Shown here in pieces: positions 139 to 57,940 of a DNA stretch of 64,000 nucleotides; the stretch's first letter is position 1; every line of letters begins with the position of its first letter. Under the pieces are notes generated by a model. That model saw nothing but the letters and a program-made list of their open reading frames with translations. It did not search any database and had not been told where the DNA came from. Source of the stretch: Hydrolagus affinis (lineage: Eukaryota); NCBI GenBank assembly GCA_012026655.1, contig JAAILG010000537.1:1-64000 (forward strand), in the 5' to 3' direction. The position numbers and the translations under genes are program-made.

Positions 139-159
139 TAAGCAAAATAACAATCTCGC

Positions 160-4770: not shown

Positions 4771-4787
4771 AGAGCTTCACGGCATAG

Positions 4788-5142: not shown

Positions 5143-7344
5143 CGTAACTCAAACTTGTCCTAGAAAAAGCAAAAACGGCAAATCCCATCAGCGACAGGCA
5201 TCGCCTTTGGCAAAGCACAACAGAATTTTTTTTAGGCGAATATGGCTTCATGTCTAGCAAAGTTAAAAGTAGGCTTCCAAGCAAAACAAATCATTCCAAG
5301 CGCATGTGGTCATGGTGTTGCTGTGTTTTGCTATTGAATCAGTAGTAGGGGTTCTGGTTTAGTGGCAAATCTCATCAGTTTGCTCCACAAAGTGCATGAC
5401 CTGTCAAGCGGATACTTTAAATCTCTCTGTGAGTAAGGCTGATTAAATAACTCACAAGGAACAATGTAGGGAGTTAGTTGCCTCAGCCAGGGCAGGTATT
5501 GATCACACTGTGGAGCTGGCAACAGCTGTTTGATTTATAGCAAGTGTCCATGGTTCTGCAACTGAAAATAAGTCAATTTAATAAGTATTTTTCTAGTCTC
5601 CAAGTTATTCAGTCAAAGTTATTTTATGAAGTTAATTTATTACTTTAATGTCGGCCCATTGGAAATAAGAGTTGTCTGGTTGTATTTCAACAGATAAAAA
5701 CGTCTGTGTCATGGGCACATGGTGTAATAATCCTTGTATTTAATATAGCACTTTTCACATCTTCTAGAATACACTGTAATTGTATTCTAGTAATTGACTG
5801 CATATTTGTGGGCGAAACTCGTATAATTAAGACGTGTAAAAAAACAAGTGAAAAGTTTTTTTTGGAAGGAGGGAGAGTGCAAAGAGGAATTCACAGACAC
5901 CGTCAACTTTTTAAATTAACATTCAAACAATTGGATTGGTAGTTAATTAACAGCATTCCCACTGTGTGCGCACAACCAGACAATAAAAAGGAAAGGGATT
6001 GTTAGGCATAAGTGGCTTAACTTGATTCTCAAAATGCCATTTATTTTTAATTTCCTGGTATCTGACTTCATCGCTTTCTTATTTTCTCCGATGTTCTTGA
6101 GTCACTATGGAAAGGGTTGTGGATATTACTGTTGCCTTGACCCTAACATTATTTCCATTGTTTTGGAGGAAAGAAAAAATAATAATGATAATTATTTGCT
6201 CACTCAAATACCTCATGGCTGGTTGTGGAACACTGCCACATTTCGCCCCCACAAAATACACAGTCAATTCATTTTACAGTATATCCTGTGAAGCGTTTTG
6301 AGATGTTTCAAGGATGTGACAAAGGGCTATATCAAATGCAAGGATTATTATTCTTTTGGGGGATAAGAATAGATTCTGCAGCACTCTCCGCAGTTTTCGT
6401 ACATTTCAAGTTCAGGTACTGGAAATTTTCCAGTTCTCTGGCCTTGATTTCACTTGCACATCATGTATTCTCTTGGAACACATCTCTCTTTGTTACTGGT
6501 TCCACTATCGGGGACTTTTGTCGTAGTTTCATCTTTCTGTAGTTGACAGCCTCTCCATCACAGTGGTTTCTGTTCTGTAGTTCCCCTTGTGACAAAGCTC
6601 AGCGTGCATGTAAACCATTTGAAGTTTATTAGCGCCTGTGGCGAAATACGTTTCAAATAAACGTCCCTTCTGATAATCATTCTTCTATTATTTCATCTGC
6701 AGCCATTTGTTTTGTTCCTTCACCCAGCTGGGTTAATGGCTTTGTTTTTCCCTTCATGTGGTTTTATGTACTTGCGAGTTTCGTGCAAAGTGCCAGGCTG
6801 TACTTTGGGATGTACACTGCAGAGTGGTTCACTACTGAATGTTCACTTGGGAGAAAACATCTCGACACAACATTTATTCTGTATTGGCACAATCATTTCG
6901 TCTCATTACCAAGTGTTCCCAACTGACCTTGTTGATGCTGTACTGTTCTTTTTTGATTGTGGTTACTGTGAGGAAGTGTTTCCCCGACCGTTCCCTCCAA
7001 TCGTTCAGAAGCTGCTCTTATTTCAACTTCTCTGTTTGACTTCTACTGGTGAGCTTGGCAGACAGACTTTTGGTCACTTTCATGCCACTTATCTAATCTC
7101 GGCTGTTATCTTTTGCTGCTTGTGTCGCTTGCAGTGAGTGAGATGAAGCACAATTTATTCTGCAGAAGAATAAGTTTCCAAAATCTCATTTCCTAGTGCA
7201 CTGTATTCGTGGACTACGGTTTTATTGCAATCGTAACCAAGGTCTAGAGTGGAGTTGTTACTCATTGGTATTTCTGTCTTTGCTCTATTTTCGTTTACAA
7301 ACATAATCTTTCCCATTCCTAATGAAGACACAATAATAACTCAG

Positions 7345-7570
7345 TTAAGGAGGTGACAATTCAGTCAGGTTCCCACTCCTGATCGCTAACCTGTGACCTG
7401 TGCTGCAAAATGATTGGACAAAGATGTCAAATTAGAGACAGTTGTGTTGCCCTGTAGTTGGAACACCCGCTGTCTAGACTCGCGCACGAAGAACGTGAAG
7501 CATTGAAAAGCTGGTGATGGGGAACTGTACTCTACTCCAGCATGAGTTCATGTCTTTAGAATGGGACGGG
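7345..7570 (+). mobile_element. LF-SINE-like ancient repeat relic (related relics at about 7940-8010 plus 8230-8390, 22260-22335, 43720-43930(-), 55835-55950)
   Basis: ctcctgatcgctaacctgtgacc...ctgtctagactcgcgcacgaagaa...ggaactgtac..ccagcatgag resembles LF-SINE body motifs, as recalled. Highly diverged. Confidence 0.4.
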
Positions 7571-8029
7571 AGAACACTGGAAAAGTATGCACATTCGTAA
7601 AGAAAATACTGGTTTAGTTAGTGGACGTCAGTTGACACAGCAATTCACAAGAGACGTTCAGATAAAGAAGGCGCCGTTGCACATTCAATATTATCCTCCA
7701 AAATACCAGCTTTGCAGCATTCCCATTGCAGCATCAAGCAGTTTCTTAAACAAGTCGTCTCCTATCCCCATCCAACAACCCATTCCAGCCATTGATTGCT
7801 CTGATACAGGTACTTGCTGCTTAGCTGATCTCAGTAAAATTGCAGGGAACAACTGAGTACATTGAGCTATATCAAATATCAAAAGCACTATATCAAATAC
7901 AAGGATTATTATGAATACTATTATTATTACAATGTGGTCTCAAGATCCCCAGGTTAGCAAGGGAAAAAAGTCAGCCATATTCTGTCCTGATCATTAGCCA
8001 GAGACCACTGCATTTGCAATTAATAGTTA

Positions 8030-8224
8030 ACAAATAATCCTTGCATTTGATATTGCGCCTCATACGTCTTTGAGACGTCTGAAAGCACTTCACAGAATAT
8101 ACTGTAAAGTGAATTGACTGTATATTTTGTGGAGTCATTTATTTTGTTGTTGTTTCGCCTTGCTGGGAATTAAACCCAGGTCTCTCGCTTGCTCTGTGCT
8201 CTGCCCACTCAGCTACAGGACTCT
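8030..8224 (-). mobile_element. Internally deleted tRNA-derived SINE
   Basis: Tail aatccttgcatttgatat... is joined to head ggaattaaacccagg...ctcagctacaggactc with the central body missing. Confidence 0.8.
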
Positions 8225-11184
8225 ATATATCAACTAAGGACACATGATCGAGTCTGGTGGTGATGGTTGCACATTCAATACTCATGGACAATGGCTGCTT
8301 GGACAATGTACAAGAGAGGAATTGGCGTTTGTGGAATTGCACCCCAGATGAAATAGCATACTGGCACTCACACTGTGTTACACATAAACATTAGAAACCA
8401 GACATTATCTGTGGAAAGCCTACTTCATGATGCGTCAGCAGCTTTAATGCAGAAGGGGGCGTAAAAAAGAAGGCTTTTTAAAAATCAACTCTGCATTGTC
8501 CTGGGCTATCGAAAGCTCTTTCATATTCCCGTTGCTGTTGCAACATAAAATTCACGACAGTACACAATGTTGTTGGTATAATGGTGTTGCTACTCCAACA
8601 GTTATTAATAACTAATCACTTTCTGTACAGAGATGATTTCTCAGTCTCTGAGGAATATCTCTGGCCAGCATTTAAAATTAAAATGCAAAGTACTGAGGGA
8701 ATGGCCCTTGGACACGGGGGTGTCTGCATGCCAGACGTCGCATTAAACAATACTTAGGCTGTTCAAGCTGCACCACTTAAAGATGCAGATGCAATATCAA
8801 ATGCACATTTTGCACTCTGGAGTGGCAAGCAACATTTCATTTGTTCCGATGGGAATACTGAATATAAAACCAAGCCCATTTTTAAAGGAGGACTGTAGAT
8901 TACCAGACTCTAACATTAACATCGAGGAACTATACATTAGCTGACACTCGACATGGTTTAAATTATGACCAGGAGTGTAATGTGAATGCTAATGCAGTAC
9001 AGCCCTTTGAATAAGAAATATTCATCCACCTTTTCTCCTACTCCCCAACCAACCCTCGCCTACCCCCACCACCCCCGCCCTGATAAAATATGAGCAGGAA
9101 TTGAGCTTCACTTTTTCTGAGATACTCTTGTGATAGATCACTTTGTTATACAAGCACTAACATAAATATGTCACTGTTGTTGAGTCTTGATTGCGTTCAC
9201 TTAAGACTCTTGCTTCCGACTCGTGAGATATGCGGACGACAGTAAAGTCTGCAGGCCCGTGCAAAGTGAGTGCTAAAAATAAAGCAACAGGAGTCTGGAA
9301 ATGCTCATTGCATTATCGGATCAGAAGTAAACAGAGCAAGGCTGTTTGTGGGGGAAAACCCCCCACTGGGATTGTGAAACAGGGCAGCAGTGAGGAAGTG
9401 GCATTAAAGATATCCTAATATGCAAGACACTGCCCTTAATTCATTCATGAAAGGAGCAGTCCCTCAGAGGGGACCTTATAGAGGTATATATATACAATTT
9501 TAAAAGGCATTGAAACAGTGAACCCAGAATAATTCTGTGGAACATTGCTACTCACAATTGGCTGCCATGTTACGCTCACAAAATATACTCCTGTGAAGGG
9601 CTCAGATGCCTCGAAGACGGGGTAAGGCACTATATCAAATGCAAGGATTATATTATTATTACTGCAGCATGAGCAAGAAAGTAGAACACGTGGATGCAGT
9701 TTTAGTGTTGCAGAAGCAATTTCATAACAGACACCAGAAAGATTTTCTTTACTCAGCGAATAAAGCATTCCAAGACTCTCGTTACCCTGCGTAGGTGCTA
9801 CATAAATGCAAGTTGTTAATGTTATGATTGAAATAAGTTACCGGGACGAATAGTTGATAGCTGGACATATGAACCATGAATAATATGCTTGTTAAAAACA
9901 TTTAAAAAAAACTTCCCTCCCACCCCACACCTTTGAAAGGACCAGCTGGTGAACAAGATCATTTACTAAGTTAAGAATTGCTGGAACAATTTGTAATAGC
10001 CAATTTGCGAGCGTCATTGAAGGGCCTGGAAATGTTATTTTGTCTGATATAGGGTTGAACCTAACTGCTCTGCATTTACTGACAGGCATGAACTGAAGGA
10101 GAAATTATTCATTTGCTACCAACTGCCAAGATCATTCAGTGCTCAAAGGGGGTCAAATAGTTCAGAAATCAGCTCAAAGATTTCGATGGAAAGGCTTTGT
10201 GGATTTACTATACAACCAGAGGACCTATTGGACGCATAACAATGTGCTTTGATGGCTGCTACCAAGCTATTAGTTTAAATTGCTCCCGCACACGCTTTGG
10301 TTTTATGAAGCTTAAATTGTGGCTTTGTGGAGAAGGCATCAATAAAACAATCTGTAGGGGAAATTCACACTGCAGACATGCCGCTAGACAACTGGATGGA
10401 TTTTAAGAGGGAAGAAAAGAAAGGGAGGAATTCATTTGAGTACCATATAAATATTTAGCTATCATGTCACAATCAAACTAGTCAGTTTCTAATTGCTGGA
10501 GACCTTTTTATTCTTCTCTTGACTGCTCAAAGACCGCCTCTAATGGGATAGTCAAGGTACTGTGCATTACCAATGGTATAGGAGAGCCAGTTATCAGCAG
10601 TAATCACCACTAACATTAGACTCACAAAGTTAATGGATGTCATGCATTATATAATGAATATTTTAGCTTTTAAACGCAGACCTCTGAATTTCCCACTTAA
10701 GCTGAAACGCTTTAGAATAGATTTAGAGAGATCAGTTGAAATCAAGTCCCACCAACTTTTTATTCTTACCACACAAAATTCCACCTAGTAAAGCAAGACA
10801 CACTGCTCTACAAACTGACGAACTGACATCTGAAAGAGAACGATGGGTTAACATGTTGAGTGCCAGTAACCTGAAACATTAACCCACGTTTCTCATTCAC
10901 ATGCTAATATTCCACTGGGAGACAAGTTCTTCATCATCTCACAGCAATTTTATTTAAAGCCTGGAATATTCAGAGTCAAAGCTTTCTCTGAAATAAAATT
11001 CAAAGCTTCCCTGTTCCATGCGCGCACACAACACACCTCAACCATTTCCCAGGTTTCCATCATTTCCCCTCTATTCATGGCACTTTCCTTTATATTGCTT
11101 CCCCTGTCCACAGGCCTGTCATCTCCCCACAGAAATGTAGGGAAGCTTCACCATTGCAGATACATTTAGATGATAGAACAAACA

Positions 11185-11410
11185 GACCAACACAGGTTTA
11201 AGGATGCAGAAGGCAATTTTAGGACAGCCTCCAACAAGTATTGCTTCACCAAGAGCGTATTTAATGATTGGAACAAGCTACCAGGAGGGGTAGTTGAGGT
11301 CAGAATGTTGAACTAATTGAAAGAAAATAGCTTGTTGCTGTAATGGGAGGACGGTAGATTTATTGCTCTGGAAACATGAGATCAAATGGGTTGAAGGGCC
11401 TTCTTCATCT
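11185..11410 (+). mobile_element. Old CR1-clade LINE 3' fragment
   Basis: ttttaggacag...tgcttcaccaagagcgtatttaatgattggaacaagctaccagg...gtagttgagg encodes the CR1-like F(T)xRV(F)NxWNxLP..VVE end, followed by a CR1-type 3'UTR (aaatgggttgaagggccttctt). Confidence 0.65.
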
Positions 11411-13213
11411 GAGAATCTCTTGCAAACTCTGAGTCCACTCCAGCAAGCTGCCATCATGTTCAGCCTCTGCTAAATACAGTAACAGCTTATCGTTGAGCTT
11501 CAGTCTTTGGTTTGTTGGCAGAGGCAAACCATTTTATTTGGATCATAAATATCTAATATGATTTGATTGAACACTACTGGATGCCTGCTGCCGGGTAAAG
11601 CTGTTCAAAGGTATAGAGGGTGATCTTCCTCAACATCGCTTTGTAATAAAGTTGCTTGCAATTGGAAGTGCAACGCTAAACAAAAATTGTATCAAATGGC
11701 AAAACAATCTCTAACTATTATTTTCAAAAGAAAAAAAAAGCATTTTGAAGTTATTATTAATTCCAGCTACAAAAGTAGTATATAGCTGGGTGTAAATCTG
11801 TGAATAATCTGTTCATATTATCTGCGCTGCCTATATAATCGTTTTATATTAATCCCCCCACCCAACCCTCTAATGCTCAGGACCACTGTCCTTGACCAAG
11901 ACATTGGAAAATACCATTGGAACATCTTTAATCTATCTCAGATTATTTGAATTAGTACAATTGAAGAGGATCAGAAAGAATACTAACTGAAGTGATCCAA
12001 TCATATTGATGCCTTTACCTGCAATTGTCCCAGGAGCTAAAGACATCAAATCTTGTTCTTCAATTGACTTGCCTGGAATTGATTTCCTGGTGTATTACAG
12101 TGAAGCTTGCATTTCACATATGAAGAAATCTGCTCTATGATCAACATAAATCTGGATTGTTGTGGCTACAGGTAAAACCCCATCAAGGTGGGTCCCAAAT
12201 AACCACAGAACAAAAGCAGGAACCAATGTACTAGAAATTCTACTTACAACCAATTATTGCCATCTATTGGTTTTGCGCCCGTCGTAGCAAACAGATATTA
12301 AAAATTTACGTCTATCTTATAAAGGATTCATCTGAAGCAATCTGTAACACTATAGACTCCGGAGATTTATATATTATATTAAAAAGAATCTGGTTTAATA
12401 TTGACAACTAAGCTAAGCCTCCCTTTAGCCCTTTCTTTTCCGTCCATTTCAATATTCTGCAACATGGACGATCGATAGGAGCAATATAGAAACCAATTGC
12501 TAATGCACTTAAGACAGAAAACACTTGCTATTATATTCCTCTGTTTATCACAAACAATGTCAAGTGTTGCTCCTATTTGGGTTTAGTATGGTTACTGTGT
12601 AATTTAATGCCACACGACAGAAAAACCCTTGCAATTGGGCTGGTTTGTACATGTCACTTTGTGCTAATAACACAATATGATGGTATAACAACAACCTTTA
12701 CGGGATCAGTTAAAACACAAACCCTCATGTGGACTCACACTGATGGAAACAACAATAAACTAATGCTCTTTGAAGAAAACCCCCAAAACTCAACATTACA
12801 CCAAAAATTACATCAGAAAATTGGAGGTTGGAATAACAGGAAATAAATCAACAACTTGCAACTTGTTAAAAGGGGTATGTAAAAACATTTTTAGCAACCA
12901 AAAGACAAAAGTCAGATAATCAGGAGTAGATATAATGAAAACCTGTGTTTTCACTGGTTTGATGTTTTGTGAGAGATTGTCGGGGGCGGGGGGAAAAAAA
13001 ACTCACAATGCAAAAAATAAATGTATAGAGCGCCTGCAAAATGTGTTCTGAGTCACTCAACCATTGTGGGCGGGTGGGGGGTGGGGGGAGGTGCGTATAA
13101 AGACTGGCCACAAAGCACAAGAAAATCTACAGTACTTTTTCGAGTGGGAACCCACGGGCAGACAGATCAATCACGCAAACGGCTCAGAATAAAAAAAAAA
13201 TAAAGCGAGTTAC

Positions 13214-14999
13214 TTGATTCAGGCGATGGCATGGTGGACACAATGATAGGCGCTCCCGTACGCCTGGTGGCTTTCTGAAGCGCAGAGTTGGCCAGGTGGT
13301 AGGCTGAGCCGGCGGGAGTCAAGGCAGACTCCATCTGCGCTCCTTGCTTTCGGAGAAGCTGCGGGCTGTGGTGGGGGCTGAGCATCGGAGACATGGGCGG
13401 GTTGCGGTCCCTCTTCATCAGCTCCATGGGCACGGTGTAAGTGGTGGAGTAGGCTGTTTTGGGCACTGTGCTGGGGTGTGTATGGAGTGTGGTCATTGGG
13501 ATCCCCGACTGGGCGTAGATGGCTCCCGATCGCTGGCACTGCAGCCCCATCGGGGCCGGGCTGCTGTAGCACGTGGACACTGGGAAATGGCCGCCTAGTC
13601 TCCCAGGTGAAGCGTAGGTGGTGGTTTCGAGGAGGTGTTGGGTGGGGGCGCTGGACGGGCGGCGGGTGATATCGGAGAGCCTGGGTGACACTGGCTGCAG
13701 TGCCATGACTTGCTGTTGGATGCCGCCGTCCATCATGGCCGAGTGCATGCCGCCGTCGTTGCGCATCAGTTCGTTCCTGTGCGTGAAGCTGTTGGAGCGA
13801 GCCCTCATCCGGGCACTGTTACCCTGCAGTTCCTGCCGCAGCTGCAAGTCAGCTTTGCAGTTATGCACCAGCCGGGACAGCACCCGAGCCTGGCCCAGGT
13901 TCGGAGACAACGCCTTGACGTCGTTTTCTTCCAACATGGCCAGGAAAGTCATGGAGTCGAACCCTTGCTGCAGCAAGGAAGCAATGGTGCCTTCCGACAA
14001 CCCCTCCGAGCGCAGCCACGCCAGGAATTCGGGATCGAGGTCCTTCTTGACATCTTGTCCGGGCATTCCCGCAGGCATGTGGCTACGAGGCATCGCCATC
14101 GTATTGTCGTAGCCGTCATACATGGTTTTCGAAACCAAGCCGTCCGTGGCATAATCGTGCATCATCCTGGACGGGACGCCTTGCCTCGGACTCCTGAGCG
14201 TGTTCGGAGGGGGCATCCTATCCAAGGTAGGGTCACAACCAGACCCGGTGGCCGGATCCACGACTAAACATGTCGGAGTTACCTGCCGGGCGAGTGCGGG
14301 GTCCACCAGCCGGCCGGAAAGCTCGCTGTACATCGACTTGTTAGCCAGGGACGGTGGTTCTGCTCCGTACCGAGCGAGCTGGGTCTCAGCACCATATCTT
14401 GCTGGAGACAGATCTCGGCTACGGATTTTCTGTCCCTCGTGCACGAGCTTGCCAGAAGGATCACGGTACATTCGGCCTCCTTCAGGAGGGGGAGGGGGCC
14501 TGCCTTGCGAGCTGTCCCATGATATTCTCCCCCCTGGCATCCCATAATTCTGCATTGATCTGTTAAGCATGTGGTCCCTATAAAACCGAGTCTCTTCAGA
14601 CGGCCTAAGAGCTACTGCAGGATCCGAGTAGTAATCCTGTGGAGGCAGAGAGTTGCGGCCAGACATTACAAGCTGCTTTTCGTAGGACAGATCGGGCACG
14701 GAACTTTTCCTCACGATTCTGCGATCATATCGACTGGGATAACCTTGATTAACCCCAGTGTCTGGACAGCTGTATCGTTCCGGATATCGCTCATACTCTC
14801 CTGCCAAGTTAATATTGTGGGGTCTAACTCCAGGCGGGTCGTAGACAACAGTTTCACCACTATAGGTCAGTGAATTCCGTCTGCCATAAGGCGCTTGGTA
14901 CTCATATATGCTCTCGTTGTCCCAGTTGTCTTCAAACCATCCACCAGCGTCCCAGCTCTGAGATCGGCCAATGCTTGAATGCTTGCTAGGGACAGGCAT
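13214..14999 (-). CDS. CTBP2: RIBEYE A-domain exon (retina/hair-cell ribbon-synapse isoform of CTBP2); 595 codons + 1 nt, spliced to the shared B-domain exons outside the window
   Basis: The 610-aa ORF begins MPVPSKHSSIGRSQSWDAGGW and contains GRRNSLTY, YRDPSGK, RQVTPTCLVVDP, PEFLAWLRSEGL..LLQQGFDS..PNLGQARVLSRL, RRPSSAPTQHLLET, TAYSTTYTVPMELMKR and RRTGAPIIVSTM, all recognisable RIBEYE A-domain blocks. In-frame TAA at 15023-15021 precedes the ATG. Phase-1 donor GAA TCA A|GTAACT has its GT at 13213-13212. The last 15 ORF residues are intron read-through. Confidence 0.96.
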
Positions 15000-15149
15000 T
15001 GGGATAAAAATGACTTCAGCTTAGTTAAAGAAGAGGAGGGACTTTGGTCTACAAACACATGAAACAAAGGAGGTTGGTTTCACCTGACCCCCCAACTGGG
15101 ACTGCAGAACCAGGCAACGGAAGGTTTTCTATTACAAAGTACTCCTTGA

Positions 15150-22636: not shown

Positions 22637-22736
22637 NNNNNNNNNNNNNNNNNNNNNNNNNNNNNNNNNNNNNNNNNNNNNNNNNNNNNNNNNNNNNNNN
22701 NNNNNNNNNNNNNNNNNNNNNNNNNNNNNNNNNNNN
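22637..22736. other. Assembly gap (100 N)
   Basis: Run of exactly 100 N. Confidence 1.
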
Positions 22737-27218: not shown

Positions 27219-30200
27219 AAATGCCTAGTCACACAAGAATGCAGACTAATGCAGACTCACAAATAAATACCCTCCCACGAATATATGTTATATACATACA
27301 CAGATCATGTTAAGTGATCATGGTCACACATCAGATAAAGTTAGTGCACATGAACAGGACATTGAGTTTGTCAAATCTGTGCTGATGATTCTCTCCACTT
27401 GCAGATCCACCACAGGAGGAAACCATCACATATTTGTCGGTAACTAAACTCTAAACTTGCAGCATGACTTTGTGTCTGTATTTGTGCAACTGTGATGTTG
27501 AGTGCGTGCGTACGTGATTGAGTCTGTGTGTGTGTATGCGTGTGTGTGTTTATGTATGTAGATATGTATATATGACCGTTTGTGAGTGTGTATGTATTTG
27601 AGTCTGCGTTTTTATTTCAGATCCTCCCCATGTGAAAGGCACTCTATAAATGTAATTTTGTTGTTTATGTGAGTGTAGGTATGCATGGGTATGTATGCAT
27701 ACAGGCTTAAATATATTATATATACAGATTGGATATGAATATTATATGTTGGTGAAAAACTAAGAAATCTTAAATAAAGCAGCAAGTAACAACTTTTTAA
27801 ATATAGCTACGTAGGGTTCAAGACAAAATAATCCAAATAAGAGCATTTTCATTCTCTGAACACAAACCATCAGACCATGCCAATTATCCTGTAGATAAGA
27901 GTCATTGGGACAGCATATCTGATCAACAGCACAGTAATCAGTTTAAAAACTCCAGCAATGATCTCACCATCAGTTTACCTTAGTAAGTCATGACCAATAA
28001 TGTTTCTGAATGCTACGGACATGCTCAGCTTGGCATGTCTCCTCAGAGCTGGGCAGACCTATTTTCCTACCAGATTTTTTTAGACAAGACGCTCATTTTA
28101 AAAGGGTTTGGACACGATAGATTTCCAATATGTTATTCAAAGTGCCCTGGAAGTCCACCACCATAGAGAGGAGGGAGGTGAGCAGGATGCTTAGACTTAA
28201 CCAACCTACACGGTGAGTGTGGGTATTTTGCCGAGGCTGGGAGTTGTTTGCATCGTGTCGATCAAGAATATGCTTTTCCTTCATGATTGTTACGCTCGAC
28301 TTTCACACGGGATGAAACTCAAACTTTGGACCAGTTTCCAATTCATCCACAACACTGGGCTTTATTTATTTGTAAAATATGTATTTTCTTTATTTAAAAG
28401 AATAAAAGAAGACAGAAAAGAGTAAAGGTCCCGTTTAGATTTTCAAACCCTAGTCTTTTATCCGAAAACTGAGGGAATGGTAGGAGCATAAGTCACTATG
28501 ACGGAGAGTAGGACTATCCAATAACTTGTCCTTTGTATACTACAGCATCTGTACTTACTTGGCATTTGCCCCGTTGGACTGGGTATGTTTGGATACTTAG
28601 TGGGAGGGGGAAGGGAGCAACACATTATGCCACCTTCACTTCATGTGTACTTAATTTACTGAAGAGAGAGCCAATGGGGAATTAGCCATGCCAGACAAAG
28701 AGACTAACTGTGCAAACCCAATGCTTCCAGGTGGAAGTTCTGGAGGTGCTGCAGTTAACTTATACCCACGGCTTGTAAACTGCTGAACGGGTTGATGTGC
28801 GATTCACTAAAACAGGTTCCCTTTAAGAGGAAACTGCAAATTAAAACAATCAAACATCTGGAAATAATCTCCCTTCATAATCAGATCCACACAAATGGAA
28901 CTTTTGCAGCCATTCCTACTCCTTCGTTCCAGTTATTCTCACATTTGCAGCGATTAGATCTGATGCAGAACATCAGAAAGAAAGGCTCATTTTCAAGAAG
29001 TCCGGTGTCTGCTTATGTGTTCCCTTTTAACTTGGCTTCAAAGCCTCTTTATGAAACAACAAAGAATGGTAACCCATGAACGTGGGTGAAACATACTTTA
29101 ATACAATAACAAATCATTGAGAAGGGACCCTTAAGCTGCTTTAAATGGCTTTAATACCAAAGCAAAGACCAAGCGAGCGTCGCTGTGGGAACAACGTGTT
29201 GCTTTCAAAGCTTGGCACACAGCAATCAGTTTCTCTCTCTCTCTACCACAGCAATCATAGGGAAGGCCCTTTGCCAAATTAGAGATGAAACGCTACTGTG
29301 ACATGTATGTATAATTCTTAAACTGAACATGTTCAGTCTTTCTTTTTGTCGCTAGGAATGGGCTGCACGGAAACGGATTAAAAACCACTAAGCCTCGACG
29401 TCATAGGGAGCTTTAAGATGAATGATTGCAAGTTGAACCTTAGGACCAAAGGTCCTTCTGCATCAAACTTGAAAGGATATAAACAGGTTAATTCCCAAAT
29501 GGCTTTGCATTAAAATCACGCACAATTACATTAAATGGAGACATACATCGCATACAATGTTGTGGTTAGTAAGCTATATGATGAAGGTTCAAGTGAAATT
29601 ACTTAAGGGATTTTGCTTTTAACGGCCGAGACTTCCTGATTACAACTTCACAAACTGAACACATGGAAAATCTGCTCACAACAAATCATTAATTAACTGA
29701 GAGAATCTGAAGGCAGTAATATTCCAATGGGGTAGAGGAGAAACAAAAGCAAACGGAGTGAGGGGGGACAGACACAGTCTTTACTAACAATATCAGTCCA
29801 GCTATTGATAAGTGACAGTCATCTCTCATTGTTGTCCATTCAGAAGAACTAATTTGTCCAAGTACAGGTATATATATATATATATATTATATATTTGTAT
29901 TTAAATATATCTGTGAGCAATTGCTCACCACCATTAAGTTCTACCTGTCCTAGTTGCAATGAAAACAAGGTCAGGTGCAGACACAAAGAACACTTAAAAA
30001 AAAGCCAATGTGTTTTTTTTAACACCAGTATCACCAAGGGTGTGAGTGTTGGGGTCTAAAATGCCCTGGCTGCCCATGAACTTTTCTAATGTGATTTCCA
30101 AGAACGAAACATTCACCAGGGTTAGGAAAAAGCATGTGCATACCTATGTTCCTAATTCTGCACCGTAATGCTATGTTGGATAGTGCAGACTTAATATAGT

Positions 30201-30634
30201 TCTCCTAAAGGTTGACAAGCATATTACCATCCATATCCTAATACTGTCCCATTCATCTATTCCACGCTTGCGACTGGCAGAAATTGATTTAACAGATGGG
30301 ATCTCAAGTACTTCTTTCTTTTAAGGCGATCAAGGATATGAAGACACAGCAAATTCCGTGGACTCCTTTGTGTTCGTAGGAAGTGCGGTTTATTGAAGTC
30401 TGAAGGCGTAGCCGGCAGTATTTTTTTAATCTTATTGAACAAGACTTATTCAGCACAACAATGCTGGCACAATGTGAGGCAGGTTAAGCGGGCACAGGAG
30501 ACCACACCTCAAAAGTTGCAGAGCTCTTTCCTGTGTTGGTACAAAACGTTGCCAGGATGCACTAGCTGTCACACCCAGTCATACATACATGCATGGGCTG
30601 CGTTACTTTAGTATTGCTGCAAATGCGAAACCAA

Positions 30635-30673
30635 AGGGGGGTGGGGGGGGGGGGTGGGGGGGGTGGGGGGGGG
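30635..30673 (+). repeat. Poly-G tract with G-quadruplex potential (other G-rich tracts at about 25867-25960, 47305-47375, 54000-54058, 55030-55070)
   Basis: Four long G runs separated by single T residues. Confidence 0.75.
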
Positions 30674-31335
30674 CGGTCTGTAAACCTGCAGTGCAAACAT
30701 AGCCTTGCCTCACTTTACTGTTAGCGTTTAAGTCAGAATTGCAACTAAACGGAAAGATGCTTGTCATGTAACCAAAGAGCGTACGGAAAATATTTGTACA
30801 AAAAACGAGCGTGTACGGTACACATTGGGGATCTCTCCGACAGCGGCAGGCGGCGGACATGGATGTTTGTGGTGCACACAGGGGCGACTACCCCCCTTCC
30901 CTCCCACCCGCCCCAATCCTCAGCTCGGGTCTGAAGCAATAACTGTCCAGTGCCTTGGGACGTCCTCCTGACGTGAAAGGCGCTATACAAGTGTCATTTT
31001 GTTGTTGTTTTAAAGGGAACGTCCCTGGAAAAATATGCGCGCAACCTGTGTGCGTTTTTTTGTGTGAGTTATGTTTCAGATTCATGTCGTAACAAATATA
31101 TTTATCAATAAACAAAAAGTATTCTACACTGTTTCATGGGAGTTGGGAGGGGGGGAAAACGAGAGAGAGTTCACAGGTACTACACAAGATAACAAATTGG
31201 CCTTCCATTCTTTTAAGATACAAATTAGCATTTGTAACTGCCAGGCTGCTCTCAGATCTAAAAGCTATGGGTTGTACAATGATGGTTACCATTACACAGT
31301 TACTCAGGGCTACCCAAGTGTGAAGCGCATTTTAC

Positions 31336-31393
31336 CTTCGCAAATTCGATCCAATCGTTGCCGTTTCACTTTGTGCTTGTCCATCAGAGACAT
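31336..31393 (-). CDS. CTBP2: CtBP2 (long, nuclear co-repressor isoform) first coding segment MSLMDKHKVKRQRLDRICE-G
   Basis: Reverse strand reads ATG TCT CTG ATG GAC AAG CAC AAA GTG AAA CGG CAA CGA TTG GAT CGA ATT TGC GAA G|GTAAAA. This matches the vertebrate CtBP2 N-terminus (MALVDKHKVKRQRLDRICEG) including the KRQR NLS. 58 coding nt with a phase-1 donor. Too short for the ORF track. Confidence 0.96.
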
Positions 31394-31505
31394 CAGTGAT
31401 GCTGCTTGAACGAGTTCCTTTTAAAATAACAAGCAAACAGTGTTTCAGGTGTCCACAATTCAGAAGAATCCACAGGGGCTCAAGCACATAACTTTAATCC
31501 AACTT
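31394..31505 (-). other. CTBP2: 5'UTR portion of the CTBP2 ATG exon (whole exon 31336-31505, 170 nt)
   Basis: Strong acceptor on the minus strand, cttctgtgtctctttatttttttctttcAG|AAGTTGG (AG at 31507-31506), directly upstream of the ATG segment. Confidence 0.8.
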
Positions 31506-33269
31506 CTGAAAGAAAAAAATAAAGAGACACAGAAGTGTCATCAGTCAGACTGACTAAAATAGTGCACATTCTAAAGATAATAATCCTTGCATTTGATATG
31601 GCGTCTTCAAGACGTCTCAAAGTGCTTCACAGAATATACTGTGAAATGAATTAAATGTATATTTTGTGGGCGAAACGCAGCAGCCGATTGGTAGTGTCCC
31701 ACAAACAGTCGCGGACTGAATGGACCAATTTTTTTTAAGCAATATGGGCTTTCACTCAAACAGCAAAAGCTCTTGTGTGGTCACGTTACACAATTCTTTG
31801 GTCAGGGCTTATCAACAGGCATTAATGGAAGGAGCAAACATAAACATTTAAGCTTACACAGGAATGGGAGTGTATGAGAGACATTGTTCAACTATTGTAC
31901 ACACTACAATTGAGGCCTGAGGCCTATCACTAAATAACACCGCATTGAATTTGAAATCGTTGGATTTTCTGATTGGCATTGACGAGCGTTTTGTTTTTTC
32001 ACACAATGAAACATTTAGTGTAAATGGCACATACACAGCTCGGTCAATGTTGGGAAAGATTTAAGGCAAATGAACCTATTCAGTACTCAACGATGCCTTC
32101 TGCCTTTCATACAGAGTCTCATAGTGAGAAACAGTAGGGCTGACTAAATGAAGGCTGACTATTCTAACCTGACTGAAACTTCATAGCTCAAGAAAATGCC
32201 CAAAATGTGAAGTACACAGGGTGGGGGGGTGAGGAGAAATTCTACCCAAATCAAGACTGTCTCTATTACACCGGCTGCAGAATTCGACAAATTTGGAAGC
32301 TGGTTTTCAGTAAATTCTTTTAAAACCAGGGAATATCGGCCTCAAAACAAAGACTGAATCATGTATAATGTAAGTGTAGCCCCAGGTGTAATTCCATCTC
32401 TCAACACCCCCCCATCTACCGCCCCTGCACAGAGATTAAATTATACATCGACTGTGAAGGTGAAACTAAAACCCCTATAAGATGCAATTGTACTCTTCTG
32501 AATGTTCCTCACTTGTTCCTCTGAATCCCCAACTGCACAGAACCTACAGACTCCCTGCCTACTTCTTCGATGTTGTAATCAAGAATTGAATTAAAATTTT
32601 CTCCATCTTCCAAGTATTTTTTTTTACTAAGGATCTCACGAATGTGACACCCCTCAGTTTTCCCTTCCTCCCAACAATTCACACTTTGAGTGTGATTTAT
32701 CCAACTTATCTCCCGTGTTGCTCCTTCTCTTTTCAACCTTGGTGATGCCTGTGGTATAAGCCTTAGCCTTTCACCGAGATTTCTCAACTTGGGGAAAAGA
32801 AATTGATGAAACATGTGTTGCATGTCAATTTTGTCATTTTGTTGCTTAGCCAGACACCATTTTACTAATCCATGAACAGTCTACTACAAGAACTGATCCG
32901 AACATCATGCGGTATTTTAATTCTGCGTGGACTGAAATGCCATATAAGCAGCGGAGCTAAATGCAATACCTCTTAACACATCAAAGACCAAAAGAATTGT
33001 TAATGCATTATCTAGTGCCCACTATTAAACTGTATAAGCATTCAGGGAATTCTGCGACGTGCTCTTAATCATGGCATAACACACTTGTACTAAATCAGTT
33101 CCTCTGGTATTTAGAGTATAAAAATAACAGTCATTAACAGACTCTAGGAGACAAGGTACCTGACATTTCAATGCCCATTTAATTTGTCATGGGAGGCAAC
33201 ATACACTTGAATAATCAAAGCGGATCTACTTTTCTGTTGAAATGATTTTACATACACACCTAAATAGTT

Positions 33270-33825
33270 TCATTGTCTGTGGAGAGGAAAATGAGTTAAC
33301 GTTTCAGGTGGATAACCTTTCCTCAGAACTGATGGATGCTGGAGGGGGGCAGATAGCATGGAACACAGAGAAGGGGGCGGGGAAAGAAAGATAAAGGCAA
33401 AATTTAGATAGGGGACAGAAGATGAAGAGATCAGAGGTGTGGATGGAGCAGGACAAAAGAAGGCAATATGGGAGTTTATGGAAAGAAAAGATATGTCTAA
33501 ATCCCAGAGGATGTGAATGGTTATGGAAGAAGGGGAGGGGAGAGGCAAGGCTGAGAGAAGATGGGAGATGTGTTGTCCTTATAATCTCATTAACCCATCA
33601 TCCCCTGTCCTCTACTCCATTTCCTCCTTTGTCTTCCTTGCCCTGCCTGCCCCCCTCTAGGTTGGTCCTTAAAAGCCTCTCCCTCCCAACATGCCCTAGT
33701 TCTGACAAAGAAACATTGACTCACTTTTCCTTTCTTCATAGATACTGCCTGACAAGCTGAGTGTTCCCAGCAACTTCTATTTTTATTTCAGATTGCCAGT
33801 ATCCGCAGTATTTTGCCTTTTGTTT
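33270..33825. mobile_element. Penelope-like element relic (inverted terminal repeats around a purine-rich then pyrimidine-rich spacer)
   Basis: Left arm on the minus strand carries the hammerhead motif. Right arm tctgacaaagaaacattgactcac...gatactgcctgacaagctgagtgttcccagcaacttct...tccgcagtattttgc aligns by eye to 57803-57940. Confidence 0.6.
33294..33330 (-). ncRNA. Minimal type I hammerhead ribozyme motif (CTBP2 sense strand)
   Basis: Minus strand AGUU-CUGAGGA-A-AGGU(UAUCC)ACCU-GAAAC-GUU/AACU. Complete CUGANGA and GAAA core, 4-bp stem II, perfect 4-bp stem I and palindromic AACGUU in place of stem III. Confidence 0.6.
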
Positions 33826-35154
33826 AAGTAGTTTCATTCATTGCTAACCCTGCCACCAAGGACATCCGAACTTGTGTGTATTTTTAATGACAAGTATACA
33901 AAGCAAAAATGGAGAAATGTGTGGAAAAGTCTTTCTAAAAATTATTTTCAACTTGTTTTTAATCTCGGTAGGCCTTTCCTCATCCCAGCTGTGCAACTAG
34001 TTAATGATGGGGATCAAATGAGAAATTGAGCCTTGCAACCCTCTCTAACTATTCGGAAAACAAATCCACCAAACCAGGTCATGTAGGCCAATATATTTAC
34101 CTTATTCAAAACACAACTGCTATAGTGGTAGAGTTAATGTACTTGAGGGATAAGCTTGGAAGGGCCAAATTGCTTTCTCTCATATTTTTATGTGCTTACA
34201 TCCTAAACGAGTCAATGCATTTCACACTGTGGTTTTATGGGATTATCCCATCTCCTCTACTGTTCACATGGCAAAGTGTTAACACATTTGCTGGATTTGC
34301 CTGGAACTAGTGGGGAAAAGTTCTGGACGAGCATCATGCCCAATGCTGTTGGAGATGTGCAATTCTAATGCCATATAGCCCTCTTAATTAAATATGATTA
34401 AATATAATCCCAACAGTAACTAACATCAGCAAAGCGCGTTAGGCTCGCTTGTCATGTTTTCTCACAGAGGAGTTTTAACTGAAGGTCACTGAATACGTAC
34501 ACTCAGGTTAAAATGAGTCAATGAAGTCCTCCCAGAATGGATGTACTGTACTAGAATGTACATCTGCATCGATTGACAACTTGTGTGTCAAAAGATTTGG
34601 TAGATAATGGAGTCTTTCCTCCTCTGGGAATTAATATAAGCATCAATGATGTTTTACCACATGTCACTGAGTATCTCGCTCTTCGATGGGATGAGCTGCT
34701 GAGTAATGCTGGACAGGGCAGGAGAGGACACACTGCATGTAATTTTGGAAGAGCCGGGCACTGGCATATCAATGCAGTAATCGTTCAGATGAGAGATGTC
34801 AGGTGCAGCAAAGTACCAGATGTTTAACAATGTTCCTGCCCAAATCCTGGCTCAACACAGTTTCTACCATTTTGTTGCAATAGAATGCTAAGTGGGACAT
34901 GCTATTACCATACACACAATTTGATGATCGCAAGTATACCCCAAAGTAGAGTACGATGGCACAGTGCAACACTCTGTGAAACTGCACTGACGAGTTGCAC
35001 ACCTTAAGGTATGTATTGCACAGGTGCTTTACACTTTGTCTGCTGCGAGGTTTTATGGGTCATTTTCTCACAATAGCTACAAAACAAGAACTGTGGATTT
35101 TGACCCATTCATGCAAACAAAAAGCAGCTAAACATGACATTGATAGTGTATTTC

Positions 35155-35470
35155 CAATAATAATAATAATTCCTACATTTGATATAGCACCTCATTGCAT
35201 CATTGAGACATCATAAAGCATTTCACTATTATTATTGTCAGGTGGATTGGCTGGGTATTTTGTGGGCAAAGTGCAGCAGCCAATTGCACAAACAGTGATG
35301 GATTGAGTGATCCACCGATCGACTAATAACCGGGTTCCTGCTTACTGTTAGGAATCCAGAAGTGTGTGGGGTAAGGAAACTTATCTCGCGCTTTGTTCTG
35401 GTCCGGGAATCGAACCCCAGGCACTTTCACCTGCGAGGTGAGCGCTCTAATCCCTACGCTATGGGACTCC
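35155..35470 (-). mobile_element. tRNA-derived SINE, variant subfamily with an extra internal segment
   Basis: Tail and body as in the main family, plus atcgactaataaccgggttcctgcttactgtta between body and head. Head gggaatcgaacccc...gctctaatccctacgctatgggactcc. Confidence 0.75.
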
Positions 35471-38400
35471 ACAATCTGATTTCGGCAAAAAATCTTAAGA
35501 TTGGGGTCTAATTTGCGGTATTTCTCAAAAGAGTTTTTCAAGCAGGAATTTGCCAACCCGTGGGATCTCCTTTCCAAATGGCAAGACCGTGTCGTGCTGC
35601 GTTTCCAGGTGGCATACTTATGTTTAGCAGGACGGGTCACCATTTTCGCAACTCTGTGATTCCTTATTCAGGAATCCTGTGAGGAAATACCACAAATTAG
35701 ACCCCTATTATCACAGTCCTGAAAAGCCTGAAGCAAGGGCCTCCTGCGCGAAAGTCGGCCTGTATCCAACTGCAATTGTGTGCGTTTGATTGCTCCATAC
35801 GAGAGATTCAGAGAGCTGCCTCGCTGTGTAACTCCTACTGCATTAACGTTAGCAGCCGGTGCCCAATTGGGGAAGGGAGAAAGTGAAAAGTTAACGAAAT
35901 AAGCTGTGAACATTCTCCCGCAATATAACTGCACGCATTTCAATCAATTTGCACGATGCAAAAACAACATCCACCGCCACAATATGCCTTTGCGTTGGCT
36001 TAAGTATTTCATTGATTTTCTGATATTCTCAGAGTTTACGCATCTCACAACACATTTGTGGAGCACTCAAGGCAGCGTGATAAATGATAAAGTATGCGGA
36101 AAGTCAAATATTCTTGCTTTGTCAATGCTATAGTCTATTTCCCCCTGCCCCATCCCCTTGTTCCAAACATGCAAGGCATGATAGAACGATAAAGACAAAA
36201 AAAATCTGACCTGGAAAAAAACCTTCAGTTCTGCTGTACAGACAAGCAAATTTGCATGTACTCTGAGATAAAGTAGTAATTAGCACTGGAGCAGATAAAG
36301 GTCGTTCAAGTTAAAATGTTTTATTTTAGGCACAAGATAATAATCTTGAGACCTAGTAATTGCATAATATTTCTATCATGTCCCCACTGCACAGTGGATG
36401 TTTTCTCAGTAGATCATGTTCAAGATTCTCCTAATGGCATTTCACACATTCTGATAAAGAAAGATCTCAGAAATGTTCTGTGCTGTGCAACTCACAAGTT
36501 TTCATTATCTTCTGTAACCTTGCTCTTTAGTCTCAAAATGTCCTTTAAAAACAAAGACTATCGGTTTGAATTGTCTCTCAATTGCTTGGATATTTTAAGT
36601 TCAGCTTCTCTCAGTTATTGTCAAGTAGAAGAAGGGGAGAACAGTACACTTTCAGTATACTAAGCGCTCTGAGACGCCATCCAGCGTGGTGGGCGCTATA
36701 TAAATCGAAGTTGTTGTTATACTTTCAACTTTTAGATTTGGGTTCATTGTCAGTCCAGGTGAATTTCTGCTTCTATCCATCACTTGTTTTGCTCCCTCTA
36801 GCAGCTGTTAGGAGTCTTAAGTGGTAATGAGTTTTAGTGAATTCTGGCAGCCTTAATCCAGCTTCCAGCACAATGAATGAGCTTCTGGCACTTATTCAGT
36901 CTTATTCAGAAGGGAGAGGAGAAGACAAGTGCCTTTGTGATGCTGCAGGAAGGTGCTCACTGGAGTTCTTGCTTGAGATACATCACTGGTCCCACACGTG
37001 ACCTACATGAAACCAGACCCAATGCCACGCTTAAGATTTCAACACCACTCAGCTGAAATGCACACAGCACACTGTGGTGTCTGGCGCTCCTGAGGCAGTG
37101 TAAACACAGCCAGAGGTGGAGTTACTCCTGCTGCATCTGGAGCCAGCTCTGCTAGAGAGAGCAGGGTGATTGTGCATCTCACGCATTCACTTATCAAGAC
37201 GTATTCTGTTCTACAACACCTGTGGAGATCAGCAAAGGCTCTTCACTTTGCTGGCCTGTGTGGACTTTCTCCACATGACTGTACAGTACAAGGAAAGCTT
37301 ACGGGTTTTGTAATCCGCGGGAGTTTATTATAGAGTCGGGAATCTTGACCTGTACAGTTTGTACGCTCGTTCGCCACCTGCATTTGGACTGCACAATATA
37401 TACATGGCAAATCGCAAACCTCATTAGCCACCAGCAAGAACACCAAAACAGGCCATTCAGCCCAACTAGTCCAGGTTAAGTGTTTATACTCCACACGAGC
37501 AATTGCTAATTTGCCTTCCAATACCCCTCTATTCCCTGGTATGTCATGTATTGCACTAGTAATGAAACATAAGAGGCTTTTATTCTTTCTGTGGCTGTAA
37601 AGTGGAACATTTTTCCACTTTCTATTATTTGTTTGGAGTACTACTGTTTGTTTGTATTTGTTAAAAGATATTTAGTAAGGATACTACAGTTATTCTGGAG
37701 CGTTTGCTTACAGTGGGCTCCAGCCAACGCAATTATTTAATCACTGAATACCACTAAATGTAAAGTCAATAAAACTTAAAGGGGAAGTCAAGCCATTTTA
37801 TTGAAGTATGTTATCTGACAAACTGTCATTCACAGACTGTAGTCCCGAAAAGAAAAGAAGGAAAAACACGGAACAGAGATGCAAATAGCAGGAAGGCACA
37901 GGAATCGATTCCCTTCAGCATTCAGAAAGTGACATGGAAACTGGTTAAGAGCTGTTATTACTCCTTCAATAATGTTACAATTTCCCTAATGTAGCGCCAT
38001 TTAATCCAGCCAAAAAAGTAGTTACTCTTGTGTTTTTCTCGTCAATGTTGGCTCGATAACAGGAACCTGGTTCTTAAAGCCAAAGGCAAAATTCCTAACA
38101 TCCCCAATGCCTGATTGCTTGCCGTAATATTTGCTGCAGTAGCTGGATTAGATCCATTTGGGCCATTCTGCCCAACTAGTCCATACCGATAAACAGCAGC
38201 AACATCTGGCAAATTATGTTGGCCTAGACACCCCTGATTATAATATAACTTAATGATTCAAAGAAGTGTTGTAATCTTACTTATATAATTGCCCTAAAGC
38301 CTGTAAACAATGACTCACAGAGGACTACTTCTGCACATTATCTCCACCGTGAGGCTGAGCTCTAGTTTATTAGTGTGGTTTTCATGCTAGGAGTCGAACA

Positions 38401-40324
38401 AATGCCCGATCTTGAAGACACAGTAGTTGCTCAGCTCAGCAATTTTACCCCCTAACCCATGGATCCTACAATAACTTGATTCCCAATCTGTCTTCTTGTT
38501 AATCAAACTCCTATTTCAGATGATGCAAACACCCCTCCCCCTACCCCACCCCCACCACCACACCCACCCAATTATCTGAGCTGAACCATTGGTTTTGCAG
38601 TAAATGTACAACCCATGCTTAGATTTATTTTACATTCTGGGATCAGTCTATTGATTTCAGCTGTATAAATCCCTTCCTGCTTGGTTTCTGCATAAACAGA
38701 ATCCAGTTCATACCATTGAAGCATGAAGAACACTTTTTAAGACCGATATACACTGTTATGTTAAAGCAGATTGATCCTCTGGGCTTGGTTCAGCATTGCC
38801 CAAGATGACAAGCAGCTTTCAATCTTATGTGTTCAATTGTATTTCTTTGCTTGCTGGCCCTGGGGAACAAAACTACTGTTAATAGAGAGCTTGTGAGTGA
38901 GAAGGGGCAGCATAGCATCAAAGTCATTGAATTCCCCATCTCCTTGTTCTCATAAAGGTTTTAATTGTCTTGCAGTTTTGCAGAATGTACAGAGCCTGAA
39001 TTCCAACACCAAAGCCTATTGGCAACATTAATGCCTATCCTTTGTGGGTTTTCTGCTGGGTTTAGAGGTGAAATCTTTCAGCTGAGTATCTCCTCTGATA
39101 TACTGGATTTTAAATGTTTTTGACTCTAAGCTAAATACATACATGTAGATAAATATCACTTCTGGCATGTGCAATAAATAATGTATGTGTACTCTTTGCC
39201 TTGGTATATTAAAGTGAGATAGCTAAGGTGCTCCCTGATGCTTTCCTTATGCTTCACATTACAGTAAAATCTTATGAAGCCCTTTGAGCTGTTTTGACGA
39301 TGATACAACATTATATCAAATTCAAGCATTATTGTTCTTAGACAGTGAGTGTCAGCAGGTTATTCAACAATGAAGACAATCCTTGTACATTTTGAATCAG
39401 TTAATTCACCCCAAAACTAACCTCTTAAAGGATAAGTATCTTCGGGAACATATGGTTTACAAGCTGAATGCAATTGTCTCTCTTTACTCATTCCAACATT
39501 TAGGTAGGCTTGATGCAATTTATGAACCACTTACACTGGAAATTTTTAGCAGCGATGTAAATCCACTCTTGATTCACAAGATTCCTTTATGAACATGGAC
39601 AGATCAGCTTTGTAGCACATCCCTGTTCAAAAAGCCAGCCCTCAATGGCAACCAGAGCTGTTTCTGTGTAAAGAGCTCCCAGGTATTAGTTACAATATCT
39701 CCAGCAGCCTCTCTCGCCTTAAAACTACAGCCCGAGGCATTGTGGCTGGGAATGCATGTTCCACAAGTATGAGCGGCACACATTTGTGAAAAAGGATTAA
39801 TAAGGTAATTAATGTCACAATACATATAGATCTGTGTTTGCACAGCCACTGACTCATTTACATTAATAAACTGGTATAACATTAAGAAACAGCCAGGGCA
39901 CCACATTTTAGGCAGACTGTAAACCAACAGATTTTAATCAGAAGCACGCATTCCAGAGATTTGAAAATATATACCAGATTTATACTACATTTCCAGAGTA
40001 AGCAGGACTTTGGGATCAGTGCTGCTCTAATAATCTCAGTTTGAAGTGATTATTTCAGGTCAGAGTACTGAGGTCAGATTATTGAGTTGTGGAGATCAGA
40101 CTTCCAGCAAATGAGCCCTGAATACCATCATTCACCCGCTCTCCGCCTCATGACCACATGCCGTGACTTTATAATAATAATAATCCTTGCATGTGATATA
40201 ACACTTTTCCATGTCTTTGATATGTCTCAAAAGCGCTTCACAGAATATACTGTAAAGTGAATTAATAAAGTGAGGTCTTTGATCAGTCAGATCGGTTGTG
40301 GAAATGACAGTAACAAAACTCGCT

Positions 40325-50297: not shown

Positions 50298-50397
50298 NNN
50301 NNNNNNNNNNNNNNNNNNNNNNNNNNNNNNNNNNNNNNNNNNNNNNNNNNNNNNNNNNNNNNNNNNNNNNNNNNNNNNNNNNNNNNNNNNNNNNNNN
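50298..50397. other. Assembly gap (100 N)
   Basis: Run of exactly 100 N. Confidence 1.
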
Positions 50398-56310: not shown

Positions 56311-57802
56311 ATAAGGTGGAATAATAATAATATTAATATGATATGATATAGCGCTTTATCATGTCTTCGAGACGTCTCAAAGTGCTTCCAAATCAATCCA
56401 GCTTCCCAGTTCATCACTGGAAACTGCACAGGTAAATATGGGGTGAAGACAGGATGGCAATGGTCTGCACTCCCTTCCCTCCCACTCAACTAAACATTCA
56501 CCGAAGTTCAAATTGGTTCAAGAGATCAGGATTCTGCTGATTCATGTGGATCCAACTCCCAGCTACAGACATGGGCTTCAGGAGAGGAGGGAAGGAAATT
56601 GGGACAAAAGTACACAGCATGCCATGGATTCAGAATCTCAAAGAAAAACAAAAATCTGCGTCGCAACTCTGGAACACAGCAATTATTCACCAGTGCGCCC
56701 TACACCCAAACAACCCTATCAGTTCCGAAATACATCAAACGGTTCAGAACCCTGAAATTCCACCTAGACTAGTTTACAAGTAGCATCATTTTGTCTTTAA
56801 ACTTAATGATCATGTGGAAAATGCAGACAAAATGCTTTAAGTTCAGCCTTAATTTAACATTTTTGTTGAAGGAATTATAGAAAAGCTGCTCTAAATCAAG
56901 ACTGAATCAAACAATGTTTCATAATTCGTCACTAACTTAAATGTTAAGACTTGAAGAGGTTAAGACTAGTTCAATGTTTGAGCCTGTGATTCCTCACACA
57001 CTCCCACCGCCTTTTCGAGACCACCCATCCCTCATTGGACATAAATAGAAGTGCCCTTTAACAACAGCTGCTACACATCCGAATGCTGTAAAACAGGATA
57101 ATTGTGAACGAGGCCTTAAGCTATCTTAAACCTGTAGTGACAAGACGCATGCACCACAATCACAAGTAACTTTCTCCCCCATGCCCTCTCCCCACCCCCA
57201 CCCACCCTGTCTTACCCCTGTCTGACCCACCACAGGCTTAGTAATTGAAATACCTCTCTGGGAAGGGAAGGTAGAAGTCGTCAAAGGAATAAGAAAACCA
57301 CAATGTCCCACCAGTTAATGAGGCTTGCCAAAGAAACAAGAGGCATGTGATTCTCAAACCTACAGTAAGCAGCTTGTTTATCTGACTTGCAGCCAGAACT
57401 TTGCCACATATAATAGGGTTGGAGTAACCCCAGTGCTCAGATTAGAAATGATCAGAACAAGGTAAACAAGCACAAAATTCTTCTAAGCACACAACTATTA
57501 GCATTCTTTGCCACTTCCAACCCTTTTTTGCACTACTGCATTATTTTCGTAAAATCTGTCCAACAGTACATTCTAAAGGCTGAGAGTGAGCTCTTGTAGT
57601 CAATATGGGATGATTGAATACTTTTGTTTTGTGTATGAGCTCTTCAGAATTGTGCAAGCGTCTCACGATTTTCCAACTGGCTTCCATGTGGAGGAGCGTG
57701 TTTAACTCCTTCCTGAAGTGAAACAGCTGAGAATAGGTAGCGCTTCATAGAAGTGGAAACCTGCCTGAGATCATTGTAAAGTCAATATGCAAACACATCC
57801 AC

Positions 57803-57838
57803 GTTCTGACGAAGGGTCGTGGACCCGAAACGTCGACT
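57803..57838 (+). ncRNA. Minimal type I hammerhead ribozyme motif (antisense to CTBP2)
   Basis: GUU-CUGACGA-A-GGGUC(GUG)GACCC-GAAAC-GUC/GAC. Intact core, 5-bp stem II, GUC cleavage triplet at 57832-57834 and 3-bp stem I. Confidence 0.6.
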
Positions 57839-57940
57839 CACTTTCCTTTCTCCATGGATGCTGCCTGACCTGCTGAGTTTTCCCAGCAACTTCTGTTTTT
57901 GTTTCAGATTTCCAGCATCTGTAGTATTTTGTGTTTTGTG
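57803..57940 (+). mobile_element. Penelope-like element terminal repeat
   Basis: gttctgacgaagggtcgtggacccgaaacgtcgactc...gatgctgcctgacctgctgagttttcccagcaacttctgtttttgtttcagatttccagcatctgtagtatttt. It is the reverse-complement homologue of 2638-2766. Confidence 0.7.

Follow-up and report, generated by a model that had tools for sequence, protein, structure and literature searches.

An intact minimal hammerhead motif in a CTBP2 intron of Hydrolagus affinis, most likely a silent relic of a Penelope-like element

Does an intact hammerhead core on the sense strand of a CTBP2 intron cut the transcript of its host gene, or is it what a mobile element left behind? The question is raised by the window analyzed here, a stretch of 64,000 nucleotides (positions 1 to 64,000 of contig JAAILG010000537.1, assembly GCA_012026655.1, Hydrolagus affinis), in which an earlier note had described a minimal type I hammerhead motif without stem III at 33294..33330 on the minus strand and suggested that it could be a retained, isoform-specific cleavage element. 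The answer that we reach, with high confidence, is that the motif is the hammerhead ending a Penelope-like fragment that lies with an inverted arm in a CTBP2 intron, and that it is likely an inactive, neutral relic.

Reading of the sequence confirmed the motif with all of its parts as described. On the minus strand, AGUU (33330-33327) and AACU (33297-33294) make up an intact stem I of 4 bp, CUGAGGA (33326-33320) and GAAAC (33305-33301) are the core strands, and AGGU (33318-33315) pairs with ACCU (33309-33306) around the loop UAUCC to give a stem II of 4 bp, preceded by an unpaired A at 33319, between positions 9 and 10.1. The cleavage triplet is GUU (33300-33298), with the expected cut 3′ of the U at 33298. 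The core sites match the hammerhead consensus at 11 of 11 positions and the palindrome is also intact; helix III is absent and positions 15.2-16.2 are palindromic, as in the published consensus. Relative to the majority sequence of its own subfamily, which we call A, the motif differs at 3 of 37 positions, and one of these changes breaks a fifth stem II pair. Stem II is closed by A10.1-U11.1 rather than the consensus G10.1-C11.1; A-U is the majority state in subfamily A and G-C that in a second subfamily, B, a compensatory change in stem II.

The same layout characterizes the min-HHR of metazoan Penelope-like elements described by Cervera and de la Pena in 2014 (PMC4209133). As far as the available part of that report goes, the likeness extends to the core boxes, the missing helix III, the palindromic 15.2-16.2 and an extra base before stem II, and also to thousands of dispersed copies with opposite-strand pairs 100-700 bp apart. 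The min-HHR consensus has G-C at 10.1-11.1 where the present motif has A-U, and stem II has only 4 bp here; some rows of its supplement also begin with A at 10.1, so G-C is not universal. The alignment rows of the supplement at hand contain no cartilaginous fish. In an Rfam scan of 28000-39000, the 9 matches up to E 10 were all weak and did not include a hammerhead. The earlier assignment to the Penelope type holds by core boxes, palindrome, lack of helix III, extra base and family context, and judged by these features the motif belongs to the Penelope minimal hammerhead class, apart from the A-U at 10.1-11.1. The motif adds one more case from a cartilaginous fish to a class of ribozymes known since 2014.

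When we searched the genome with an exact pattern for an intact core and the family stem I, there were 3,768 matches (1,850 + 1,918), compared with 20 (8 + 12) for the reversed pattern that served as control. A 22-nt tail motif had 8,930 exact matches and a tight pattern for the motif's own subfamily had 25, while an 81-nt query around the motif returned 42 matches from the 40 scored of 304 candidates. In a blind sample of 60 stretches of 10 kb (599,561 bases), fetched regardless of content and all from contigs >50 kb, a tail profile picked up 18 copies, which would extrapolate to a family of roughly 30,000 copies; the core was intact in 7 of the 16 sampled copies that include the 5′ end of the tail. 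Where a genome has intact copies by the thousand, an intact core in an intron says little in itself about function. Five copies lie in the window itself, at 2772(-), 2772(+), 33337(-), 33692(+) and 57790(+), and there is none at contig positions 64001-94000. The copies at 2772 belong to a second head-to-head pair of the same family (2635-2866), with both cores broken (C3 -> U on minus, G8 -> A on plus). A better-formed copy, 57790-57934(+), has an intact core, G10.1-C11.1, a 5-bp stem II, a GUC triplet and a full tail, and is antisense to CTBP2.

The DNA upstream of the motif ties it to an element with an endonuclease. The adjoining 230 nt match many loci at 73-83%, several of them carrying the endonuclease C-terminus. 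Where the DNA preceding either arm (see below) was used to choose loci, a reading frame often ends about 300 nt before the motif, and the longer frame remnants upstream of the motif contain two cysteines and a GIY-YIG-like box. The Atlas clusters nearest to a 99-aa remnant have GIY-YIG in 30% and 41% of members (score 0.95); Pfam gave no match on the endonuclease remnant. Picking by this remnant yielded 29 other loci, 27 with at least 450 nt downstream and 2 too short; the motif follows within 700 nt downstream on the same strand in 23 of the 27, and its core is intact in 12 of those 23. A crude search for reverse-transcriptase motifs, reaching up to 1.5 kb upstream at the 29 loci, gave one unconvincing hit, and these searches found no full-length element and tied no reverse transcriptase to the motif family. 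On the strength of the linkage to endonuclease remnants, we identify the motif as the 3′ end of a Penelope-like element. A genome search with Pfam GIY-YIG found 24 loci, 0 of 24 with this hammerhead repeat family, which therefore belong to other elements; Pfam GIY-YIG matches on G000:C184962, C59892 and C36220 (L152, L153, L167) lie in frames of 227-323 residues and represent at least one further endonuclease-bearing element family.

The insertion that contains the motif has two arms. The left arm, 33275..33574 on the minus strand, is the 3′ end of a 5′-truncated element that is assigned to subfamily A by the upstream 230-nt matches; it keeps about 20 nt of tail beyond the ribozyme. The right arm, 33584..33824 on the plus strand, is by sequence comparison an inverted element 3′ end of subfamily B with a near-complete tail. 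At the junction, 33573..33587 (plus) is a subfamily-A-like piece (15/15 match to L181), an assignment that is tentative because the piece is short. A repeat search placed a likely target-site duplication of 14 nt around both arms, with copies at 33261..33274 and 33825..33838 (plus; 13/14 identical); the 14-mer (<=1 mismatch) occurs on the plus strand of the window at 33261 and 33825 only. Similar repeats of 13-15 nt were seen at 11 of 48 other head-to-head rows, a count in which some rows overlap and which was made without a shuffled control. Since both arms lie inside one 14-nt direct repeat, the repeat is likely a target-site duplication around a single inverted insertion.

The right arm includes the sequence at 33698-33721(+) that the earlier note had named as the partner copy of the motif. 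Its loss of stem II was borne out (13 nt are missing), but the sequence is on the plus strand, inverted relative to the motif, with G8 -> A and a broken palindrome, and it is ruled out as a dimer mate by its wrong strand and dead core. There is no direct repeat of the hammerhead unit in 30000-37000, and over the 94,000 bases covered of the 94,876-base contig, the sole other same-strand copy lies 30 kb away with C3 -> U.

By diagnostic positions, the two arms inside the one duplication look like subfamilies A (left) and B (right). Their identity to each other, 78/108, does not discriminate, as it falls within the 66-86% range of three same-type pairs. Two RNAs could have been used in one insertion, or the source could have been chimeric, and two subfamilies inside one target-site duplication bear on how Penelope-like elements insert. 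Close head-to-head pairs identified by exact pattern comprise 265 B-B, 6 A-A and 4 mixed-pattern pairs, in which the A-like arm is an ambiguous variant. We rejected mixed-subfamily pairs as a general rule, clean mixed pairs being rare among close pairs. Head-to-head pairs of this family are routine in the genome, and 3 pairs occurred in 19 blind hits.

Inverted 5′-truncated copies are typical of endonuclease-bearing Penelope-like elements (PMC8557442). The insertions covered in the part of that paper available share with ours an inverted copy by the 5′ end, inverted repeats around the unit and a hammerhead near the 3′ end; ours differs in lacking coding sequence and in arms that look like different subfamilies. 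Poseidon of the green anole likewise has a hammerhead in its terminal repeat, and its protein nicks and extends both strands, which fits a two-armed insertion (PMC11167929). Both arms were probably copied in the course of a single insertion, with priming at two nicks separated by 14 nt. Non-LTR retrozymes (bioRxiv 10.64898/2026.07.22.740005), found in one cartilaginous fish and with many intronic copies in Xenopus according to the text accessible, are similar in being derived from Penelope terminal repeats; they are head-to-tail tandem units, whereas the present pair is inverted with one dead motif.

The host gene was recognized by protein similarity. A large exon at 13167..15020 on the minus strand codes for the N-terminal part of a long CTBP2 isoform and is taken by us to be RIBEYE-type: its 616-aa open frame (13167-15017(-)) is similar to long isoforms of CTBP2 (70% identity at E 2.6e-262 in the best hit), the best matches being from sharks and rays at 63-70% identity and named C-terminal-binding protein 2. 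The frame had no Pfam match and scores under 0.8 only in Atlas. An internal exon at 31336..31505 (minus), with an ATG at 31393, is marked by a pyrimidine tract and AG before it and GT after it, and presumably resembles the CTBP2 N-terminus; the 20 residues that it codes had no match in Pfam or PDB. In RNA reads from another organism, the bin of this ATG exon has coverage from a single strand (depth 18.4 and 18.3 vs 0). Its 3′ splice site is at 31506, and the exon is 1.79 kb downstream of the cut site at 33298. As the earlier note had stated, the motif is in the sense orientation of CTBP2 and precedes the ATG exon; the RIBEYE-type exon follows about 18 kb downstream of the motif. The next CTBP2 coding exon was not recognized among minus-strand open stretches of at least 38 residues in 1-13200, and a search for a CTBP2 exon upstream of the ATG exon located none; transcription through 33.3 kb is deduced from the 3′ splice site of the ATG exon, with upstream exons not located.

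Around the motif, reads of that other organism are nearly all partial fits from other repeat copies, and the absence of a pile of read ends at 33298 is therefore uninformative. A contig from one DNA run, ~2% diverged, spans 31661-33619 with 31 other letters and 11 gaps and covers the left arm; among the differences listed, those nearest to the motif are at 33239 and 33355, a divergence that cannot resolve selection on the motif. Just after the motif on the CTBP2 sense strand (33298-33277), a pyrimidine run and CAG ending at 33277 resemble a 3′ splice site.

The insertion might matter to the gene without catalysis, as a fold-back stem that affects editing or splicing or through the splice-site-like run ending at 33277. 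The region 33260-33760 is indeed predicted to fold as one long hairpin (-150 kcal/mol, z -1.86, with 2 of 100 shuffles as stable), and the pyrimidine run with its CAG follows the motif in the sense orientation. Such pairs are routine in this genome, however, and the RNA reads from another organism gave no joint at 33277 among the 15 listed. We regard such a role as improbable.

Whether the motif is a co-opted ribozyme, acting singly or as a dimer, that cleaves CTBP2 pre-mRNA and spares that of RIBEYE turns first on how well its core has been kept. Subfamily A was sampled with the 230 nt preceding the motif as the sole query, which gave 29 loci; 12 were dropped because they end or diverge before the ribozyme, leaving 17 that span it. 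The core is intact in 3 of these 17 siblings and in 9 of 29 subfamily B copies. Substitutions affect 19/183 core and 115/833 tail positions in subfamily A (p 0.23), and 27/315 and 112/1422 in subfamily B (p 0.65). Without CpG sites the core appears somewhat better kept, at 13/166 vs 102/801 in A (p 0.086) and 8/258 vs 94/1367 in B (p 0.024), the B sample having been picked with a query that overlaps the core (core vs upstream, p 0.21). Variation among source elements that need the core would give the same non-CpG pattern; the hammerhead would then be maintained in the source elements and not in the CTBP2-intron copy.

The window copy itself differs from its subfamily at 3/37 ribozyme and 22/143 flanking positions (Fisher p 0.30), so that core conservation beyond that of the flanking element is not seen. 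The chance that all 11 core sites survive in this copy is 0.16-0.30; one of its changes removed a CpG through which 6 of 17 siblings have lost G8, and the broken fifth stem II pair runs against selection for the fold. By these comparisons, the intact core of this copy looks unremarkable.

Folding is a second point against cleavage, on predicted energies that omit non-canonical core contacts and proteins. The 37-mer alone folds no better than shuffles (z-score 0.31), and the hammerhead fold makes up about 4% of the ensemble for the isolated motif and about 1e-5 with 30 nt of flank. Stem II is weak, at -1.5 kcal/mol compared with -5.8 for the copy at 57806. With the partner arm present, most positions of stem I and of both core strands pair with it at a probability of about 0.9, and the hammerhead fold would cost 16-23 kcal/mol. 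When two copies are free to interact, they are predicted to do so by way of the overlapping palindrome GUUAAC, across the cut site, and not by way of the productive palindrome. U17 and loss of G10.1-C11.1 slow hammerhead cleavage; a literature search found no rates for U17 or the 10.1-11.1 pair. In the part of the 2014 report available, minimal hammerheads failed to cleave as single units and were only weakly active as multimers (PMC4209133), and in that on the anole element, the hammerhead showed cleavage only when the element's protein was present, and no read ends fell on its site (PMC11167929). The Poseidon ribozyme was assayed and needs a protein, while the CTBP2-intron motif is known from its sequence.

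The co-opted ribozyme has in its favor the motif's sense orientation ahead of the ATG exon and its intact core, with core residues, stem I and palindrome that few siblings retain together, and a GUU triplet listed among cleavable ones in the excerpt of PMC3138052 available. Domesticated intronic hammerheads, RECK and others, also exist in amniotes; they too are type I and lie inside host-gene introns, but, as far as the accessible text describes them, are conserved across species and have tertiary contacts, and helix III and loop contacts allow the RECK type to cleave as a monomer, whereas the present motif is one of thousands of copies and has no helix III (PMC6155905). Against it stand the lack of an intact same-strand partner on the contig, the masking arm, the weakened stem II and conservation no higher than in the flanks. 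A literature search found no paper joining CTBP2 with hammerhead and ribozyme. With cores this common and the partner antisense, we consider a retained isoform-specific cleavage element very unlikely; were the motif to cut CTBP2 pre-mRNA, this would be, to our knowledge, the first known host role for a Penelope minimal hammerhead. Equally doubtful is a switch in which the intact hammerhead, kept inactive by the antisense arm of its own insertion, would cut CTBP2 but not RIBEYE pre-mRNA once the arm is unpaired by editing, a helicase or a Penelope protein, and in which RNA of a second copy would pair in trans, coupling transposon activity to isoform balance.

That the motif resembles the hammerhead consensus by chance has the absent Rfam hit and the unexceptional folding z-score on its side and a negligible probability, being refuted by the genome copy counts and the compensatory A-U versus G-C change between subfamilies, in addition to the agreement with the published layout (PMC4209133, as available).

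For the silent relic, the following course is predicted. The antisense arm is predicted to be transcribed about 370 nt earlier in the CTBP2 pre-mRNA and, lying upstream, to be ready first. It would pair with stem I and both core strands, and because it covers the core the hammerhead fold is predicted not to form; the intron would then be spliced out uncut. A host function of the motif in CTBP2 is not supported; most probably the motif is a silent leftover that does not control the gene.

Three further features of the window were noted. Two runs of 100 N lie at 22637-22736 and 50298-50397. At 4592-5290, both strands have open frames and GATAT/ATATC-like words recur, in a stretch that resembles the interior of a fold-back DNA element. 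A further family of short repeats, much more numerous than that of the motif, has copies at 30940-31010, 31570-31730 and 35150-35320, with a depth in the millions in the DNA run and in the thousands in the RNA reads, and is likely a SINE-type element.
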